DNA of 64,000 nucleotides from an uncultured Planctomycetaceae bacterium (lineage in GTDB: Bacteria; Planctomycetota; Planctomycetia; Planctomycetales; Planctomycetaceae): NCBI GenBank assembly GCA_963976765.1, contig CAXBME010000005.1:248001-312000 (forward strand). Reading direction: 5' to 3'. Each line of letters starts with the position of its first letter. Within the stretch, counting starts at the first letter, position 1. Made by a program: the position numbers and the translations under genes. Of the stretch, positions 24,416 to 31,389 are shown piece by piece. The notes beneath the pieces were generated by a model. It had not been told where the DNA came from. It saw nothing but the letters and a program-made list of their open reading frames with translations, and did no database searches.

Positions 24416-24644
24416 GGCGGTTATCTTTGACGTCGTGCGGATTTATTGAGAGTTCAGGTCGATTCAGCCTCCTGCGGTGATTGCGGAAGGGCCCGAGCAC
24501 AAGACCCAGAGCGTGCGAATGGTCGCATCGATCGGTGATTTGATCAATCAACAAACCGACTCAATCAGCCCGCTCACCGTCAGAAGTTACGGTCAGCAAG
24601 AGTCGACCCGCGAAGCATCACCGTGGCATCACCCGCTGCATTTC

Positions 24645-24714
24645 AAGTCAACGGCTCATCTGTGGATTACATGGCTTGGCAGCAGTCACAAAACCGCTCT
24701 CAAGCACGACCTGC
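24645..24714 (+). pseudogene. Remnant of the 3' end of a related tyrosine integrase
   Basis: Translates KSTAHLWITWLGSSHKTALKHDL versus KYPAHVVCEWLGNSHKVALKHYL in the intact integrase (14/23 identical); catalytic Tyr replaced by Asp. Confidence 0.75.
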
Positions 24715-24716
24715 CG

Positions 24717-24832
24717 GCACCGACGAGAACCGAGTTACTCAGAAATGCAAAAAGCCCCGGAAAATCCGAGGCTTTGCTGAATGGTGCCGAGCGGTTCCGC
24801 TCTGTTCCTGTCGTAAAAGTGGGCGATGCAGG
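24717..24832. repeat. Left att direct repeat (116 bp)
   Basis: Identical to 31214-31329 except T24735/C31232; last 13 bp are the reverse complement of the tRNA-Val 3' end. Confidence 0.95.
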
Positions 24833-25124
24833 CCCAGAACATATCGACGATTTCCCGGAGAAAACTGCCATTCTCGGGAAAGGTATATCAGAACTCACTC
24901 GCGAAGAGCTGATTTCGCTTGCCAGCAGCCTCGCCGAACAGCTTGCGAAACTCGCTTCGAAACCATCATAGCCAACGTTTCAAATCTGATTCCAAAAGTT
25001 TTCTGCCTCAAGGTTACCGCATTGTTTTCAACAGACTTGAACTCTTGAATACATTCAACATCATTAAAGCAAGTGAAACCGATTGGAGATCGACAATTGT
25101 AAACTTGCTCTGACTGGAGAGGCC

Positions 25125-26699
25125 ATGAATTCCATCCAACTACAATCTACGGCAACGGCGATTCTCGGCGTGATGCTTTTCGCCTTAACCTCAACTGTCA
25201 ATGCTCAAGGCGAGAATTCGCGGGAACTATTGACCGCTGTAAAGATCGGCGAGAAGTCCTACGTTGGAGTCGTTCAAGAAAACGAAGACTCACGTTCTGA
25301 GGTTGTTCTTGAGGACGTTACAACAGGCAAAGTTCGAACGTTTCGGAAAGCACAACTTTCTGGGGAAGCTCGGCAAGTAACAGATACGGAAGCAATCGAG
25401 CTTACTGAGAACCCAGCAGCAGTCATCGCTTGGAGATTTTCAAAGTCGATTCCCAAGGGAAGTTTGCACGGAAAGGTTGCCGCCGCAACCGGAGGTCTCA
25501 TCTATACGACATTGGGAAAAGGAGAAGTTGCAGTTGGCAACGAACTCTTGGTCCATCGTGGCGAGACAGTCATCAAAGACCCGGATACTGGTGAAGTTCT
25601 TGGTCGTCAGAAGAGACTTGTCGCCAAAATTGAAGTAACTGCGATTCAGGGACGACTCTCGAAGGCAAGAGTCAAAGGTGACCTTGAGGTCGTTATTCAA
25701 GTTGGTGATCAAGTTGAGTATCAGCAGCCGAGTTCTGCGATTGCCGTACTTCCTCCAAGTGATATCAATGGGGCTGAATTCGAAGGAACAATTCATTTTG
25801 CTGACGAAGTCGTGAATCAACTTGTACGGCGAAAAGTGAAGGTAGTTGAGAGAGCAAAGCTACTGGACACCTTGGAAGAAATGGCCCTGCAATCGACATT
25901 CATTTTTGATGAAGCGACGACAGCAAGAGTCGGTAAGCAACTCGGAGCTACTCATGTAATTACTGGAAGCGTAGCCCGAGCCAGAGGAACTGGACTTACT
26001 GCCCAATTCAATATCAGGCTGGTCAATGTTGCGACTGGTCAGGTTGAGAACTCGTCTATCTTCAAGACGTATCCGTTTCGATTTGTTCCGGCTGGAGAAG
26101 CTAGATCATCAAGTTACAGCTCTGGCAGACGGCGAAAGATCGATGTATTCGAAGGGGTAAAAGCAGTAGCACCTGCAACAGAAAAGGGAAGTTGGGCAAT
26201 CGCACAAGGCGGCATCATGAATACGGCTGACCTTTCAATTATTTCTCTTCCTGTTGAAGCATCTGGCAGCTTTCAACTCGAACTTGAGATCAATCGACTG
26301 TCAGGAGACAACGCTCTGATGATCTTCTTTCCTGTAGGGTCGTCTGCTGCGTCGTATCATATTAGCCACGGCGGCCCATTTGCCGACGGGGAATACCATT
26401 GCTTGGATCACATTGACGGGCAATCTTCGTCGAAGAATGAAACACGGTCGAATGGCAGGATTCCCAACGGTCAATGGATCAAGGTTTCATTGGATGTGAG
26501 TATTCGGAGAGACAAAGCGACGATTGAAGCAACGCTGGGAGGAAAGCAGATAATCAAATGGGAAGGTGACGTGAGCAGAATTGCTCCTTCGCCAGGTTGG
26601 CATGTAGCCAACAGAAAGCAGTTTGGTTTGGGAGTTCAACGTTCAAGGGTTGCTTTTAGAAATCTCGAAATTACGGGAACTGCAAAACCTGTAAGGTGA
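25125..26699 (+). CDS. Secreted cargo protein: FlgT-C-like + CsgG/HfaB(FlgO)-like + C-terminal beta-sandwich (DUF1080-like)
   Basis: GGAGAGG RBS, signal peptide; IKDPDTGEVLG...AKIEVT...SKA; VVER..L...LEE.ALQ...DEATTARVGKQLGATHVITGS; FQLELE...VAFRNLEI. Confidence 0.7.
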   Translation: MNSIQLQSTATAILGVMLFALTSTVNAQGENSRELLTAVKIGEKSYVGVVQENEDSRSEVVLEDVTTGKVRTFRKAQLSGEARQVTDTEAIELTENPAAVIAWRFSKSIPKGSLHGKVAAATGGLIYTTLGKGEVAVGNELLVHRGETVIKDPDTGEVLGRQKRLVAKIEVTAIQGRLSKARVKGDLEVVIQVGDQVEYQQPSSAIAVLPPSDINGAEFEGTIHFADEVVNQLVRRKVKVVERAKLLDTLEEMALQSTFIFDEATTARVGKQLGATHVITGSVARARGTGLTAQFNIRLVNVATGQVENSSIFKTYPFRFVPAGEARSSSYSSGRRRKIDVFEGVKAVAPATEKGSWAIAQGGIMNTADLSIISLPVEASGSFQLELEINRLSGDNALMIFFPVGSSAASYHISHGGPFADGEYHCLDHIDGQSSSKNETRSNGRIPNGQWIKVSLDVSIRRDKATIEATLGGKQIIKWEGDVSRIAPSPGWHVANRKQFGLGVQRSRVAFRNLEITGTAKPVR

Positions 26700-26835: not shown

Positions 26836-27052
26836 ACTATTTCGGGAAAACTTCGAAAACTTCCCGGAATTATCCGGTAAAACGCCCACTACAGGAGCCT
26901 ATAGGGTGAGAGACGACATCGAACTTGCAGACAGCCACGTCACCGACGGTTGAGCGTCGAGTTTCCAGCAGCAGCCCTGACTATTTCGGGAAAAATTTGG
27001 AAACTTCCCGGAATTATCCGCCAAAACGTCCACCGCCAGAGCCTATAGGGTG
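26836..27052. repeat. Two 73-bp direct repeats, 144 bp apart (26836-26908, 26980-27052)
   Basis: Manual alignment gives 63/73 identity; shared blocks ACTATTTCGGGAAAA, AAACTTCCCGGAATTATCCG, GAGCCTATAGGGTG. Confidence 0.9.
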
Positions 27053-27162
27053 GGGCAGTCGATCGCGGCGGCTTTCACTCACTCTCAGTTCCGACGTTGG
27101 CACATCAGGGAACTTTGAGACTCTGGATACAGAACAGCCGTTCCGAATCCGGAAGAATTGGC

Positions 27163-27717
27163 CTGATTCGCCCGGAATCAGCTCGCACAACTACTCTTTC
27201 TCGGCATGTATTATAGAGAGCTTGTACCAACCACTTCTCTCCAACCACTCACCCCACCACCACAGCACACGCTCAGTCACAAATCGAACGAACGATTAAC
27301 TGAGCTTCCCACAGTGCTATTGGTTAGTGAAGCAGTCCCACCGTTGAACTTCAAACAGTTCAATTGATTGAGGGGAAAGCGTTCGGCTCAATTCAATCTG
27401 AGCCGCCATTGCTTTAGAGGCCAATGCTGAAGCCTCACGAAACTGATTCTTTTGCTTTCGAATCAGAAACGAAAACTGATCGCTCTGCTGATTGAATTCG
27501 TCATTCATCGACGAAAATGCAGAAGCTCAAGCTCAGTTGAAGAACCACAATCTTAGTTTCTCCTGCTTGTTTGAAGGTGACTGATTTCCGGCTTTTGCTT
27601 AGCCGTGAATGAAGGCCCCCGCCGCCTTCGGGGATGCCATCTCACCAGAGTGTGAACAAACAATACCCACCTCGCTTTCCATGTGCTGTTTCGGCTTTTG
27701 CCGGAGCAGCTTTTTTT
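27163..27717 (+). ncRNA. Candidate structured non-coding RNA/leader (or folded ssDNA signal)
   Basis: Series of 5-7 bp stems plus a 10-bp long-range pairing (27298-27307 with 27529-27538), ending in a hairpin + T7 terminator; no convincing ORF. Confidence 0.45.
27685..27717 (+). terminator. Intrinsic terminator/attenuator just upstream of the polymerase-like gene
   Basis: GCTGTTTCGGC-TTTT-GCCGGAGCAGC-TTTTTTT. Confidence 0.8.
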
Positions 27718-27750: not shown

Positions 27751-29082
27751 GTGACAACATCAAAGAAAAGAGTTTTAACAGCGGCGAAGCTGATCGAGAG
27801 CAGTGCTTTTAAGAATCTCCAGCCTATTGATCTTGCCTTTCAAAGCTGGAAATCTCAGAGGATACATCAAGAGAACATCATCCTGACTCTTTGGGCAATT
27901 ATTCAAAGAAACAAATCAAGAAATGCGTTCGTCAAGATTCACAGCACGAAGCTGCTTTCATACGGAGGGACCAACTACTCAAAGTATTTAGGCTGGCTAA
28001 TCAAAGAAGGATTCATCGAGAGACGCGGCCCATACATTCCAAATCATTCAAGCTGGAAGTACCGCATTCAGGAGAAAGGCCAGCAACTTGAAGAGTACGA
28101 ACTACTGACATCCAGAAAGTTCATGCCGTCTCCCAACTTGTCATCCATGACAGAAATCGAAAGCGAGACCTATCGAAACCTGATGAACTTGAAAATCGAT
28201 TTGGCTGAAGCAGAAGCCATATTCGCTGGCATCCGGCCAGCGGCACAGATTTCAGCAAGAATGGCAATCAATGAATTCGCCAATCAATCTTTCTGTCCTT
28301 CCCAATCAAACAAGACCGGGAGGGTTTCGTCAGTTGTGACCTATATGAACTCGCCATTAAGGGCTGCACTCACTTGGCACGGCGATGAAATCATGTCGGT
28401 GGATGTTGTGAATTCTCAACCGCTTTGTCTTGCGGCGATTGCTGACTGTCCGAAGTACCAATCCATTGTTGAATCGGGCCAGATTTATGAAGAGATTCAG
28501 CAGGGCATCGGGGTATCTGAAAGAGACTTGGCAAAGACAGCGTTCATGACCTTTGCCTATGGGCCAATCTGCAATTCAAAACCTGCGACCTACGGCAGAA
28601 CAGCAGAAGAGATTGCCCTCAACGATCCAGTCAAAAGAAAGTCGATCACTCGAAAAGCGGCCAGACTCAGAAAGAAAGGATTAGCAGTTCCTGATGAAGC
28701 AGCATTGAAAAAGAAACTCGAAACGAAGCGACTCAAGAAAGAACTCAGGGCCAGAACAGCAGAGTTCTTCAGAACGAAGTTTCCGAAAGCTGTCAAAGTT
28801 CTGGATTCGCTGAAGAGTGGATCGACCGAAAAGCCATATCGAAAAGCAGCATGGAAACTACAGCAGATTGAAGCCGAAGCCGTTATCGAAAGCTGCTTTC
28901 TGCCTTTGGCCCGGAAAGAGATTCCAGTGCTAAGCGTTCATGATTGCTTGCTTACAACGCCAGCCAGTGTAAGTGCCGTTGAGAATGCAATGTCAAAGGA
29001 GATAGCGGCTCACCTTGGCAAGATTGCTGGCCGAAAATGCGTGGTTGAACTCAAGACTACGAAATGGAGAAAACCTACCTAG
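27751..29082 (+). CDS. Minimal family-A-polymerase-like protein (wHTH-like N-terminus + palm/fingers, no exonuclease domain)
   Basis: TGRVSS, motif A-like SVDVVNSQP, motif B-like RDLAKTAFMTFAYG, LQQIEA, motif C-like LSVHDCLL; GTG start at 27751 after AAAGGA (443 aa). Confidence 0.75.
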   Translation: MTTSKKRVLTAAKLIESSAFKNLQPIDLAFQSWKSQRIHQENIILTLWAIIQRNKSRNAFVKIHSTKLLSYGGTNYSKYLGWLIKEGFIERRGPYIPNHSSWKYRIQEKGQQLEEYELLTSRKFMPSPNLSSMTEIESETYRNLMNLKIDLAEAEAIFAGIRPAAQISARMAINEFANQSFCPSQSNKTGRVSSVVTYMNSPLRAALTWHGDEIMSVDVVNSQPLCLAAIADCPKYQSIVESGQIYEEIQQGIGVSERDLAKTAFMTFAYGPICNSKPATYGRTAEEIALNDPVKRKSITRKAARLRKKGLAVPDEAALKKKLETKRLKKELRARTAEFFRTKFPKAVKVLDSLKSGSTEKPYRKAAWKLQQIEAEAVIESCFLPLARKEIPVLSVHDCLLTTPASVSAVENAMSKEIAAHLGKIAGRKCVVELKTTKWRKPT

Positions 29083-29266
29083 AACAAGAATAGAGAGAGA
29101 AGAGAGAGGGCTGCACCTAGGGTCTATGTTTTTCGTTTTGACAGATTTCGCCTCGTCACTGCGAGCATTGGCCGTGCCGACTGATCGATCACGGTCGAAC
29201 AACAGAAAGGAGAGTAAGCAATGACCTGACAAAGAATCACTGACTGAAAATCACGAAGTTGTGTTG

Positions 29267-29297
29267 GCCTCCCAGAATGGTCTGGAGAGGCTTTTTT
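29267..29297 (+). terminator. Intrinsic terminator
   Basis: GCCTCCCAGA-ATGG-TCTGGAGAGGC-TTTTTT. Confidence 0.75.
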
Positions 29298-29325: not shown

Positions 29326-29679
29326 ATGAGTTTGAATTCAAGTGAAGCAGCATGGTTAAGAAAAGTGCTGTTCATCATTGCCACGTATCATGATCAATGT
29401 GTAGCCCAAGCAGAGAAGGCTGGAGATCGTGCTGGAGTGAAGTATCACGCGGCAAAAGCGATTTGGTCTCGTGCTATTGGCGAGAACGCTGAATTTCGAC
29501 AAGGCGTGGAAACTGAAGAACTACGCGAGCTGGCTGGAGAACTGAGCGATCAAAGAAACCGGAGCTTGGAGTCTCTCGAATCAGGCGGAGAAGAATTGAT
29601 TGCAACGGAAACCAAAGAGCAATCAGAGATTGCTGAGTTCTGCCGGATCATGGAAAGGAGATGCCAAGAGAATATGTAG
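29326..29679 (+). CDS. Hypothetical helical protein (element-encoded)
   Basis: 117-aa ORF with GAAGGA RBS, flanked by terminators; no family recognised. Confidence 0.65.
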   Translation: MSLNSSEAAWLRKVLFIIATYHDQCVAQAEKAGDRAGVKYHAAKAIWSRAIGENAEFRQGVETEELRELAGELSDQRNRSLESLESGGEELIATETKEQSEIAEFCRIMERRCQENM

Positions 29680-29741: not shown

Positions 29742-29777
29742 CCCCGGTACAGAAGCCTCTGTTTCCGGGGTTTCTTT
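29742..29777 (+). terminator. Intrinsic terminator upstream of xis-int
   Basis: CCCCGG.ACAGA-AGCC-TCTGT..CCGGGG-TTTCTTT. Confidence 0.65.
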
Positions 29778-29823
29778 ATTTCATGTGTTTGTTTTTTCAG
29801 ATTACTCAAGAAGGATATTTCTA

Positions 29824-30069
29824 ATGAATGACGATGTTTCTAAAATTACCTTCGAACAGAGTTTGAGTCAGTCTTCAACTGACCAAACCGTATCTCGCAG
29901 CGATGTGAGCTTGCTGTCGAAGAAAGATATTTCCTGCCTGTTCCAGATCAGTGAACGACAAGTCACGAATCTGATGAAGACCCCCCGATTTCCGAAGAAG
30001 ATTAAGGGGCTTGGCAGAAGCGTTCGGTTCTCAGCCTCAGCGGTGAAGGAGTTCGTACAGAATGGCTAG
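29824..30069 (+). CDS. AlpA/excisionase-like HTH protein
   Basis: LLSKKDISCLFQISERQVTNLMKTPRFPKKIKGLGRSVRFS...VKEFV; overlaps integrase start by 8 nt. Confidence 0.85.
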   Translation: MNDDVSKITFEQSLSQSSTDQTVSRSDVSLLSKKDISCLFQISERQVTNLMKTPRFPKKIKGLGRSVRFSASAVKEFVQNG

Positions 30070-31357
30070 TCTTACCCAAACTCCAAAGGGACCGAAGATT
30101 CAACTGATTTGCCCAGACGGGAAACGACGCCCGATTTATCTGGGTGCGAAACTTACGAAACGACAAGCTGAATCTGTGCTGAGCTACGTCGAAAGATTGG
30201 CTCACTCTGTCGAAAGTAACACAGTTCCAGAGAGAGAAGTTTCTAAATGGCTCGGGGAAGTTCCCGAGAAACTCTATAAGAAGCTGGTTACATGTGGACT
30301 TGCAACGGCTCGTGAGAAGATCGTGAGCCAAACAATCGAGCGTCTGATTTCAGACTATGTGGCAAGTCGAAATGGAGTCGCAGAATCGACGATAGCCAGA
30401 TGGACGACTGTGACGAATCACCTGTTTGCCTACTTTGGAAAAGAGAAGCCATTAACCGAAGTGACGGCAGGGGATGCTGATGACTTCAGTGAGTATTTGA
30501 AGTCAAAAGGCACTGCTGACAACAGCCGCAGAAGATATCTCGGAATCGCAAAGCAATTCTTTACATGGGCTGTCCGCCACAAGCTGATTGCGGAGAATCC
30601 ATTTGCTGATCAGAAGACCTCAGTTGGTGACAGTGATCCCAAACGGCAGTTCTTCGTAGATCGCGAGTTGTCAGAAAGAATTCTTGAAACCTGCCCGGAT
30701 TCAGAATGGAAGCTGATCTTTGCTCTGATGAGGTTTGGCGGTTTACGTTGTCCAACAGAAGTTCTGAATCTTCGATGGGAAGACATTCTTTGGGGTAAGT
30801 CTCGATTTCGTATCTACAGTCAGAAGACAGATCAAACGAGATACTGTCCGATCTTTCCGGAACTCCTGCCGTATCTAAGTTCAAGTTTTGAATTAGCTGA
30901 TGACGGTGAAGAATTCGTGATTTCAAAACGACACGGGATGACGCATCGAGGATTGATTGCTCAGTACAAACGAATCCTGCATTTTGCTGCCGTAGATCAG
31001 TACCCGAAGCTGTTTCAGAATCTGCGGTCCACCAGACAGACGGAATTGACCCGTAAGTACCCGGCTCACGTCGTCTGTGAATGGCTCGGTAACAGTCATA
31101 AAGTCGCTCTGAAGCACTACCTGCAAGTTACAGACGAGGATTTCGAGGCGGCAGCCGCAAAAGTAGATCACTTGCCCGAAAAAGTAGATCACATAGTAGA
31201 TCAGCACCCGCACGCACCGACGAGAACCGAGCTACTCAGAAATGCAAAAAGCCCCGGAAAATCCGAGGCTTTGCTGAATGGTGCCGAGCGGTTCCGCTCT
31301 GTTCCTGTCGTAAAAGTGGGCGATGCAGGAATCGAACCTGCGACTTCCACCGTGTGA
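30062..31357 (+). CDS. Tyrosine recombinase/integrase
   Basis: SAM-like core-binding domain (ENPF), catalytic GGLRCPTE, SQKT, FQNLRST, WLGNS, KHYL; 3' end reads through the att repeat into antisense tRNA. Confidence 0.95.
   Translation: MASLTQTPKGPKIQLICPDGKRRPIYLGAKLTKRQAESVLSYVERLAHSVESNTVPEREVSKWLGEVPEKLYKKLVTCGLATAREKIVSQTIERLISDYVASRNGVAESTIARWTTVTNHLFAYFGKEKPLTEVTAGDADDFSEYLKSKGTADNSRRRYLGIAKQFFTWAVRHKLIAENPFADQKTSVGDSDPKRQFFVDRELSERILETCPDSEWKLIFALMRFGGLRCPTEVLNLRWEDILWGKSRFRIYSQKTDQTRYCPIFPELLPYLSSSFELADDGEEFVISKRHGMTHRGLIAQYKRILHFAAVDQYPKLFQNLRSTRQTELTRKYPAHVVCEWLGNSHKVALKHYLQVTDEDFEAAAAKVDHLPEKVDHIVDQHPHAPTRTELLRNAKSPGKSEALLNGAERFRSVPVVKVGDAGIEPATSTV
31159..31204. repeat. Three AGTAGATCA direct repeats, putative integrase arm-type sites
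   Basis: AAAAGTAGATCAC x2 then TAGTAGATCAG, inside the integrase 3' end next to the att repeat. Confidence 0.65.
31214..31329. repeat. Right att direct repeat (116 bp)
   Basis: Copy of 24717-24832; overlaps the tRNA 3' end and includes hairpin AAAGCCCCGGA-AAA-TCCGAGGCTTT, a likely minus-strand tRNA terminator. Confidence 0.95.
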
Positions 31358-31389
31358 AGATGGCACTCTAGCCGCTGAGTTAATCGCCC
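31317..31389 (-). tRNA. tRNA-Val (anticodon CAC)
   Basis: Reverse complement GGGCGATTAACTCAGCGGCTAGAGTGCCATCTTCACACGGTGGAAGTCGCAGGTTCGATTCCTGCATCGCCCA folds as a cloverleaf; CCA not encoded. Confidence 0.96.

Follow-up and report, generated by a model that had tools for sequence, protein, structure and literature searches.

The question raised by this locus is what a hairpin-rich, non-coding stretch of DNA does directly ahead of a gene for a family-A-like polymerase. Coordinates are positions on the forward strand of the window, that is, the whole 64,000-nt stretch of DNA that was analysed. The sequence-only reading had seen in positions 27163–27717 a structured non-coding RNA or single-stranded DNA paired with the downstream enzyme in the manner of retrons and DRT systems; that the stretch is non-coding, structured and placed before a family-A-like polymerase was upheld, whereas the retron/DRT-like pairing of RNA and enzyme was not. 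The structure is real, and the stretch is a control region specific to this island, ahead of a polymerase that has been little studied. Our tentatively favoured reading, at a probability a little short of even, is that it would act as an attenuated RNA leader silencing the island's presumed replication polymerase, by analogy with P4 immunity and pT181.

The stretch sits inside a 6.5-kb mobile island of low GC content (~47% versus ~57%) inserted at a tRNA-Val gene of a planctomycete bacterium. The island is bounded by 124-nt direct repeats (24709–24832 and 31206–31329, 97% identical), and its genes and elements follow rightward in the order cargo gene, two 73-bp repeats, hairpin region, terminator, polymerase, 117-aa ORF, AlpA-like HTH gene and tyrosine integrase. 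All of this is read directly from the DNA: the island and the order of its genes, the repeats, and a hairpin region with a terminator-shaped end. The genes and boundaries of the island are as follows:

24709–24832, no strand assigned: left attachment repeat, a 124-nt direct repeat copying the integrase 3' end and the 3' part of the tRNA
25083–26699, plus strand: cargo gene with an LpoB/CsgG/FlgO-like domain
27751–29082, plus strand: 443-aa winged-helix and family-A polymerase of TV-Pol/divPolA2 type that retains its catalytic residues and has no exonuclease domain
29326–29679, plus strand: 117-aa ORF with a homolog in a sister island
29785–30069, plus strand: AlpA/HTH_17 excisionase-like gene, match below curated cut-offs
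30062–31357, plus strand: tyrosine integrase, extending into the right attachment repeat
31316–31389, minus strand: tRNA-Val(CAC), the insertion target

The attachment repeat lies within the 3' end of the integrase gene (24709–24832; 31206–31357), so that excision would alter the integrase C-terminus, and the left copy runs on as an open frame (24477–24971).

Between the attachment repeats, the hairpin region is described by the following features:

27163–27684, plus strand: hairpin-rich non-coding leader, supported by hairpin counts and folding z-scores
27226–27270, plus strand: C/A tract, mostly unpaired in the predicted fold of 27163–27717 and G-rich on the minus strand

Each of the six stems to which the sequence-only reading had given a place is a perfect inverted repeat at that place. 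Two further stems that it had listed were located at 27611–27629 (GAAGGC/GCCTTC) and, as read from the sequence, at 27589–27605 (CGGCT/AGCCG), and the segments of its proposed alternative pairing, 27298–27307 and 27529–27538, are exact complements. The skew that it reported for 27226–27270 amounts to 39 C or A and 1 G in 45 nt; only four comparable tracts occur in the 8.57-Mb genome at a threshold taken from this tract, and the other three are simple tandem repeats. Compared with shuffled controls, as had been proposed, the 555 nt folded as RNA with a z-score of −3.61 and none of 100 shuffles was as stable. As DNA the stretch scored z −3.40, and an RNA of the minus strand z −3.17; since the three values are alike, folding names neither the molecule nor the strand. 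Perfect hairpins of at least 6 bp numbered 11, some of them mutually exclusive, versus 2.97 in shuffles (0/500 reached 11), and 11 or more were found in 31 of 15,390 non-overlapping 555-nt windows of the genome, placing the stretch in the top 0.2%. For the 600 nt before the gene, with the pairing span held to 300 nt, z was only −2.66, a value as low as that being reached at 2 of 21 other homolog loci. In the predicted ensemble the local GCTCAGT/ACTGAGC stem is rare (p 0.03), a long-range 10-bp helix being preferred (p 0.62–0.95). Short words are enriched in the stretch (CTGAT/ATCAG 7 times versus 1.4 expected). The Rfam scan found no family for it, the gathering search returning only the tRNA and the E-value search two chance-level matches, and no clear homolog of its 5' two thirds was seen in 398 family genomes. 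A conserved small peptide was rejected as an explanation: short ORFs are present, but the frames differ in the sister island in a by-eye comparison.

The 73-bp repeats upstream escaped the sequence-only reading, which also did not name as a terminator the hairpin that ends the stretch:

27685–27717, plus strand: strong predicted intrinsic terminator, an 11-bp stem closed by a 4-nt loop and followed by 7 T
27298–27307, plus strand: segment B, complementary upstream to 27084–27090 and 27271–27277 and downstream to 27522–27529 and 27529–27538

The predicted terminator has a pairing probability of 0.995–0.999 and ends 33 nt before the polymerase start on the polymerase's own strand, an orientation that fits a plus-strand RNA. 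Of the 21 other homolog loci that were scored, not one has such a site by the same strict test (4 of 26 were skipped in the terminator and folding comparison as short or masked), and the terminator therefore appears specific to this island. No terminator-like site was found between the cargo gene and 27384, including directly after the cargo gene, and a second terminator-like hairpin lies at 29751–29775. Two-sided complementarity such as that of segment B was reached by 5/1000 and 1/1000 shuffles (p 0.005 and 0.001, for two choices of region) in a post hoc test devised after the topology had been spotted, the topology itself being present once versus 0.005 times in shuffles. The end of the C/A tract (27262–27269) is complementary to 27682–27689, which overlaps the 5' arm of the terminator, and in a predicted fold of the nascent RNA the tract end pairs with this arm (p 0.86–0.92). 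This 8-bp helix is the sole anti-terminator candidate; by our estimate such a match would arise by chance roughly 1 time in 10, and the terminator fold is favoured by 7–12 kcal/mol over the best alternative. A sigma-70 scan called no promoter (1 site in 3.5 kb versus 3.4 in shuffles), and no antisense RNA gene was identified in the region. On the minus strand at 27215–27210, a lone perfect TATAAT, without a clear −35 element, is aimed left at the 73-bp repeats.

That a family-A-like polymerase lies directly downstream, as the sequence-only reading had stated, was borne out by motifs and fold. Its GTG start at 27751 is backed by the N-termini of homologs. R191, D218, K262, E374, H397 and D398 are kept in 128 of 128 aligned rows and R258 in 101, and the two palm aspartates, the hairpin Arg and the fingers RxxxK of TV-Pol/divPolA2 are present, together with the absence of an exonuclease, an N-terminal globular domain and an integrase neighbour that also characterize those proteins. 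At the sugar gate, where Pol I has Glu and T7 RNA polymerase has Gly, 126/128 rows carry Gln. In a confident structure model (pLDDT 88.7), residues 29–121 match winged helices (Z 6.4–7.2) and residues 126–442 match family-A DNA polymerases (Z 15.3–13.9), T7 RNA polymerase (Z 11.6) and the mitochondrial RNA polymerase of yeast (Z 14.8), the last of which scores level with the DNA polymerases. The top Foldseek matches are all DNA polymerases; a structural match to a barbavirus protein (Barba31A) was obtained at E 2.1e-7, and the RNA-polymerase matches were weak (N4 RNAP2, E 0.53; a PHROG RNA polymerase, E 0.0075). No reverse transcriptase family was found for the protein in Pfam, PHROGs or PADLOC, and neither the polymerase nor the cargo gene nor the 117-aa ORF matched anything in PADLOC. 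As far as the available texts go, the TV-Pol subset with an N-terminal domain (PMC2579912) and divPolA2 (PMC11348598) likewise have a minimal family-A palm, fingers RxxxK, a hairpin Arg, no nuclease, an extra N-terminal domain and a lambda-type integrase neighbour. Those portions describe no upstream RNA or binding site; the N-terminal domain here, in contrast, matches winged helices. CcPol-MP has a helicase/SSB partner in the accessible part of its description (PMC10061031), whereas the island polymerase has neither. The branch is very large, and activity in the parts of PMC2579912 and PMC11348598 that could be consulted is predicted only. No RNA or binding site is described for it in the literature searched, which included 10.64898/2026.01.13.699239 and in which subscription papers were largely outside reach.

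Distant representatives of the polymerase numbered 2,182 at E 0.001, and 46 of the 301 family genomes carry a homolog. The homolog loci with readable DNA carry polymerases that are 20–33% identical, closer homologs (62–79% identical) being known as proteins alone, without DNA context; a search for a close polymerase locus found none in metagenome contigs, which yielded the same island and two distant matches, nor in viral contigs or species genomes. The kilobase upstream of the gene shares no sequence with the distant homolog loci, and at 10 of 20 loci a same-strand ORF lies within 200 nt of the polymerase start. The idea of a folded upstream region common to the family was rejected, since z −3 was reached at 0 of the 13 other loci (16 loci folded, 2 too short). 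Among the 20 wide loci, a related integrase is near the polymerase at 10 and a tRNA at 11. The setting was also viewed from the integrase side, in 18 islands selected because their integrases resemble this one. The slot upstream of the HTH-integrase pair holds a primase-, helicase- or PolA-type gene in 9 of these (DUF3987, CHC2/Toprim, primase Zn-ribbon, D5 or DNA_pol_A, DUF3987 having a helicase role), a gene without a Pfam hit in 6, and was not tested in 3. Because 9 of the 18 related islands have a replication-type gene at this position, we infer that the polymerase fills the island's replication slot. Another tRNA-Val island in the same genome (L117:2922-6915, G000:C17) has DNA_pol_A and a helicase-like gene in its replication slot.

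A DNA search of 398 family genomes returned 15 other matches at E 0.01 or better, none of them (0/15) near a polymerase homolog. The ORFs were viewed for 5 of the 15, and among these only one locus (L042) proved to be a sister island (genome G614), with an integrase 84% identical and the same HTH gene, small ORF and tRNA-Val. What it shares with the hairpin region is:

27555–27671, plus strand: core common to the sister island, 71% identical over 124 columns and ending in CCCACC

In the sister the small ORF begins ~160 nt after the core, with no polymerase between them. Its contig starts ~200 nt before the core, so that the left part of the island is unseen, and its genome, 79% complete, has no polymerase match; as similar GAAAGGA words border the polymerase gene in the present island, loss of the gene in the sister is plausible. 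The 345 nt visible fold with z −3.55. As the sister keeps the core ahead of the ORF-HTH-integrase genes without a polymerase, and as these 345 nt also fold, the structure seems to travel with the island's operon. The consensus structure of sister and core is thin (−7.5 kcal/mol, 15 pairs), short sequence blocks being conserved rather than base pairs, and the hairpin at the terminator position in the sister lacks a U-tract. A sample of 400 other genomes from the class yielded no copy of the core, and two core patterns searched in viral contigs gave 2 matches (one viewed, unrelated) and none, respectively. In both islands the 117-aa ORF is preceded by an RBS-like word, a mini-ORF and a conserved T-tailed hairpin (29203–29296; sister L087:370-445), possibly a second control point.

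Taken as an attenuated leader, the locus would work as follows. Host RNA polymerase would transcribe rightward from the repeat region or the cargo gene, and most transcripts would stop at 27717 to give a folded RNA of 550–800 nt. Alternative pairings, of segment B with its upstream or downstream complements and of the C/A tract end with the 5' arm of the terminator, would set the frequency of termination. Read-through would allow the polymerase to be made, probably also the excisionase and integrase despite the hairpin at 29751–29775, and the winged helix would then bind the 73-bp repeats to start replication of the island. A regulatory leader, listed by the sequence-only reading as an alternative, fits best among the readings it had offered. 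In the available portion of PMC4825925, the P4 CI RNA acts via an upstream seqA and a downstream seqC, stopping transcription before the replication genes. P4, as portrayed there, is likewise an integrative satellite-like element with a long untranslated leader before its replication genes and a middle segment complementary up- and downstream, premature termination being the likely output in both cases. The features of this type found in the island are an untranslated leader and a predicted terminator before the replication genes (given the presumed slot) and a two-sided middle segment. The alpha protein of P4 is a primase-helicase; here the downstream gene encodes a family-A polymerase instead, and there is no Rfam or sequence match. 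Transcription attenuation also controls pT181 and pIP501 replication according to the accessible text of PMC2879508, and as described in that text a terminator hairpin in a structured leader likewise stands directly before the likely replication initiator; in contrast to those plasmids, no antisense RNA gene or promoter was identified here and the anti-terminator candidate is only 8 bp. The stretch belongs to no described RNA family and most likely works like the P4 or pT181 leaders. Two things are left unexplained by the leader model, namely the recurrence of the rare ATAGGGTG and the 5'/3' pairing in the sister, and both involve the 73-bp repeats or the site at their end:

26836–26908, plus strand: 73-bp repeat copy 1, with an internal inverted repeat and ending in CTATAGGGTG
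26980–27052, plus strand: 73-bp repeat copy 2, 86% identical, with a candidate RNA start at 27048

The repeats are candidates for an operator, an origin or an enzyme-specific start site. Three 14–15-mers taken from them occur twice each in the genome, both times in this island. Both copies terminate in CTATAGGG, the 8 letters with which the T7 promoter also closes in the part of PMC2276497 consulted; only these last 8 letters agree, the upstream part of the promoter being different. ATAGGGTG occurs 18 times in 8.57 Mb counting both strands, and ATAGGGTGRG has 0–2 copies per genome in 5 related genomes, 6 in all, one of which directly precedes the sister core while the other 5 stand in unrelated contexts. 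If the RNA is assumed to start at 27048, a 7-bp closing stem is predicted in which its 5' end pairs with 27666–27672, just before the terminator (5 of the 7 pairs at p 0.91–0.92); the CCCACC at the core end can pair with this 5' end. A sister RNA begun at its own GGG closes an equivalent 7-bp stem in both the MFE and the centroid structure, one G-C pair being replaced there by A-U and one G-U pair by G-C, covariation evidence that rests on two sequences. In the sister the GGG site lies next to the core, but here 500 nt separate them, so that the two sites are matched by motif and not by position. An upstream repeat or TATAGGG shared across the family was ruled out, since of the 25 other homolog loci just one had TATAGGG nearby and just one a long upstream direct repeat.

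These observations bear on a reading with a modest chance of being right, in which the enzyme is itself a T7-like RNA polymerase or primase that would bind the 73-bp repeats, start at the GGG after CTATA and make a ~670-nt RNA with paired ends, which would serve as replication primer or R-loop at the island's origin. T7, ColE1 and mitochondrial origins are RNA-primed. The shared CTATAGGG ends, the rarity of ATAGGGTG, the ATAGGGTGRG copy directly before the sister core, the matching closing stems and the tied fold all speak for such an enzyme, as does the available text on divPolA2, which leaves RNA-polymerase activity open and the choice between DNA and RNA synthesis undecided (PMC11348598). 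The parallel extends to two tandem sites beside an enzyme of the T7/PolA superfamily and to a G-rich strand; the rest of the T7 promoter is unmatched, however, and the enzyme is about half the size. The differing distance from site to core in the sister, the near absence of TATAGGG and of long repeats at other loci, the DNA polymerases at the top of the Foldseek matches and the weak N4 RNAP2 and PHROG hits also argue against it. To a further proposal we assign the same modest chance: that the enzyme, winged helix and family-A domain together, is a self-sufficient mini RNA polymerase or primase, which would bind the 73-bp repeats, begin at a T7-like GGG, make a structured RNA closed by the pairing of its two ends and copy the island with this RNA as primer or template, and that polymerase-less sisters keep the site and a shortened RNA so as to borrow the enzyme.

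A smaller chance attaches to the stretch acting as a DNA origin, its single-stranded hairpins and inverted GGGTG-type sites being recognised by the winged-helix polymerase, much as small plasmids have their priming signals recognised, and any RNA being incidental. The folding of the DNA, the confinement of the repeats to this island and the conservation of short blocks rather than pairs agree with this, and a cis-acting origin would be expected to persist in a polymerase-less sister; the terminator shape with its U-tract points instead to transcription, and the minus-strand G tract consists mostly of GG runs with a single GGGG. Lower again in probability is an ordinary, partly decayed spacer, in which the terminator ends the cargo transcript and the hairpins are by-products of repeated words. 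The over-represented CTGAT/ATCAG, the lack of any terminator-like site found right after the cargo gene, the absence of a clear homolog of the 5' two thirds (from 398 family genomes and 401 class genomes, one search of class genomes having used the core only) and the 2 of 21 loci that fold as well by one measure would suit a spacer, yet by hairpin count the stretch ranks among the top 0.2% of windows in the genome, and the core, as a 124-nt alignment, has been kept together with the rare site in a sister even though the integrases have diverged to 84% identity. We regard as very unlikely a retron/DRT-like pair in which the polymerase binds the RNA and copies it to DNA for defence or mobility. 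The ends of retron RNAs pair through inverted repeats (a1/a2 arms), which the possible 5'/3' closing stem resembles. A structured non-coding stretch just before a polymerase is common to both arrangements in the parts of the retron and DRT literature available, but the gene here has family-A motifs and fold, the RNA is not family-wide and a predicted terminator separates it from the gene. The parallel drawn by the sequence-only reading also fails on the homolog loci, which share no upstream sequence and at 10 of 20 leave no room for such an RNA, on the sister, which has the core without the enzyme there, on the replication slot that the gene occupies and on the missing PADLOC matches. By the features tested the locus is no retron or DRT system, there being no RT gene and no consistent upstream ncRNA among homologs 20–33% identical; a partner RNA peculiar to the clade of the 62–79% identical homologs is conceivable.

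Should the attenuated-leader model be true, it would place an RNA-level off-switch, of a type already known, before a new kind of replication initiator. An enzyme making its own RNA at the repeats would, if real, combine functions of DNA polymerase I and T7 RNA polymerase in one 443-residue protein, and the mini RNA polymerase reading, if true, would supply a first binding site and substrate for the TV-Pol/divPolA2 branch. The island offers a compact test system in which a single enzyme is accompanied by a predicted terminator and by a pair of unique repeats that contain a candidate start base, and to which a polymerase-less sister is known.

Several minor observations concern the flanks of the polymerase gene here and in distant relatives. 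The polymerase stop is followed by a purine tract (28 of 30 nt, 29081–29110) and then by a CCTAGGGT word resembling the repeat end. Tracts with at least 24 purines in 30 nt occur near the polymerase stop at 7 of 26 loci, this island counted, versus 4.7% of 1500 host genes, a comparison that composition may confound; the tract is a possible downstream origin element. Just past the polymerase stop at L033, a G-rich tract contains AGGGTGGGAG twice, like the repeat end here. The only other long upstream repeat among the 25 loci is a 154-bp tandem duplication 420–750 nt before a distant polymerase homolog (L099:4233-4560). A family of ~500-aa proteins, with a weak ParB N-terminal match in the one member scanned, is present at 5 of the 20 wide loci (L092, L093, L096, L107 and L109) and stands directly upstream of the polymerase in at least 4 of them. 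At L091, a 706-aa ORF cut by the locus edge lies on the opposite strand ~1.9–4.0 kb upstream of the polymerase, and its N-terminus resembles a Cas9-type RuvC-I motif.
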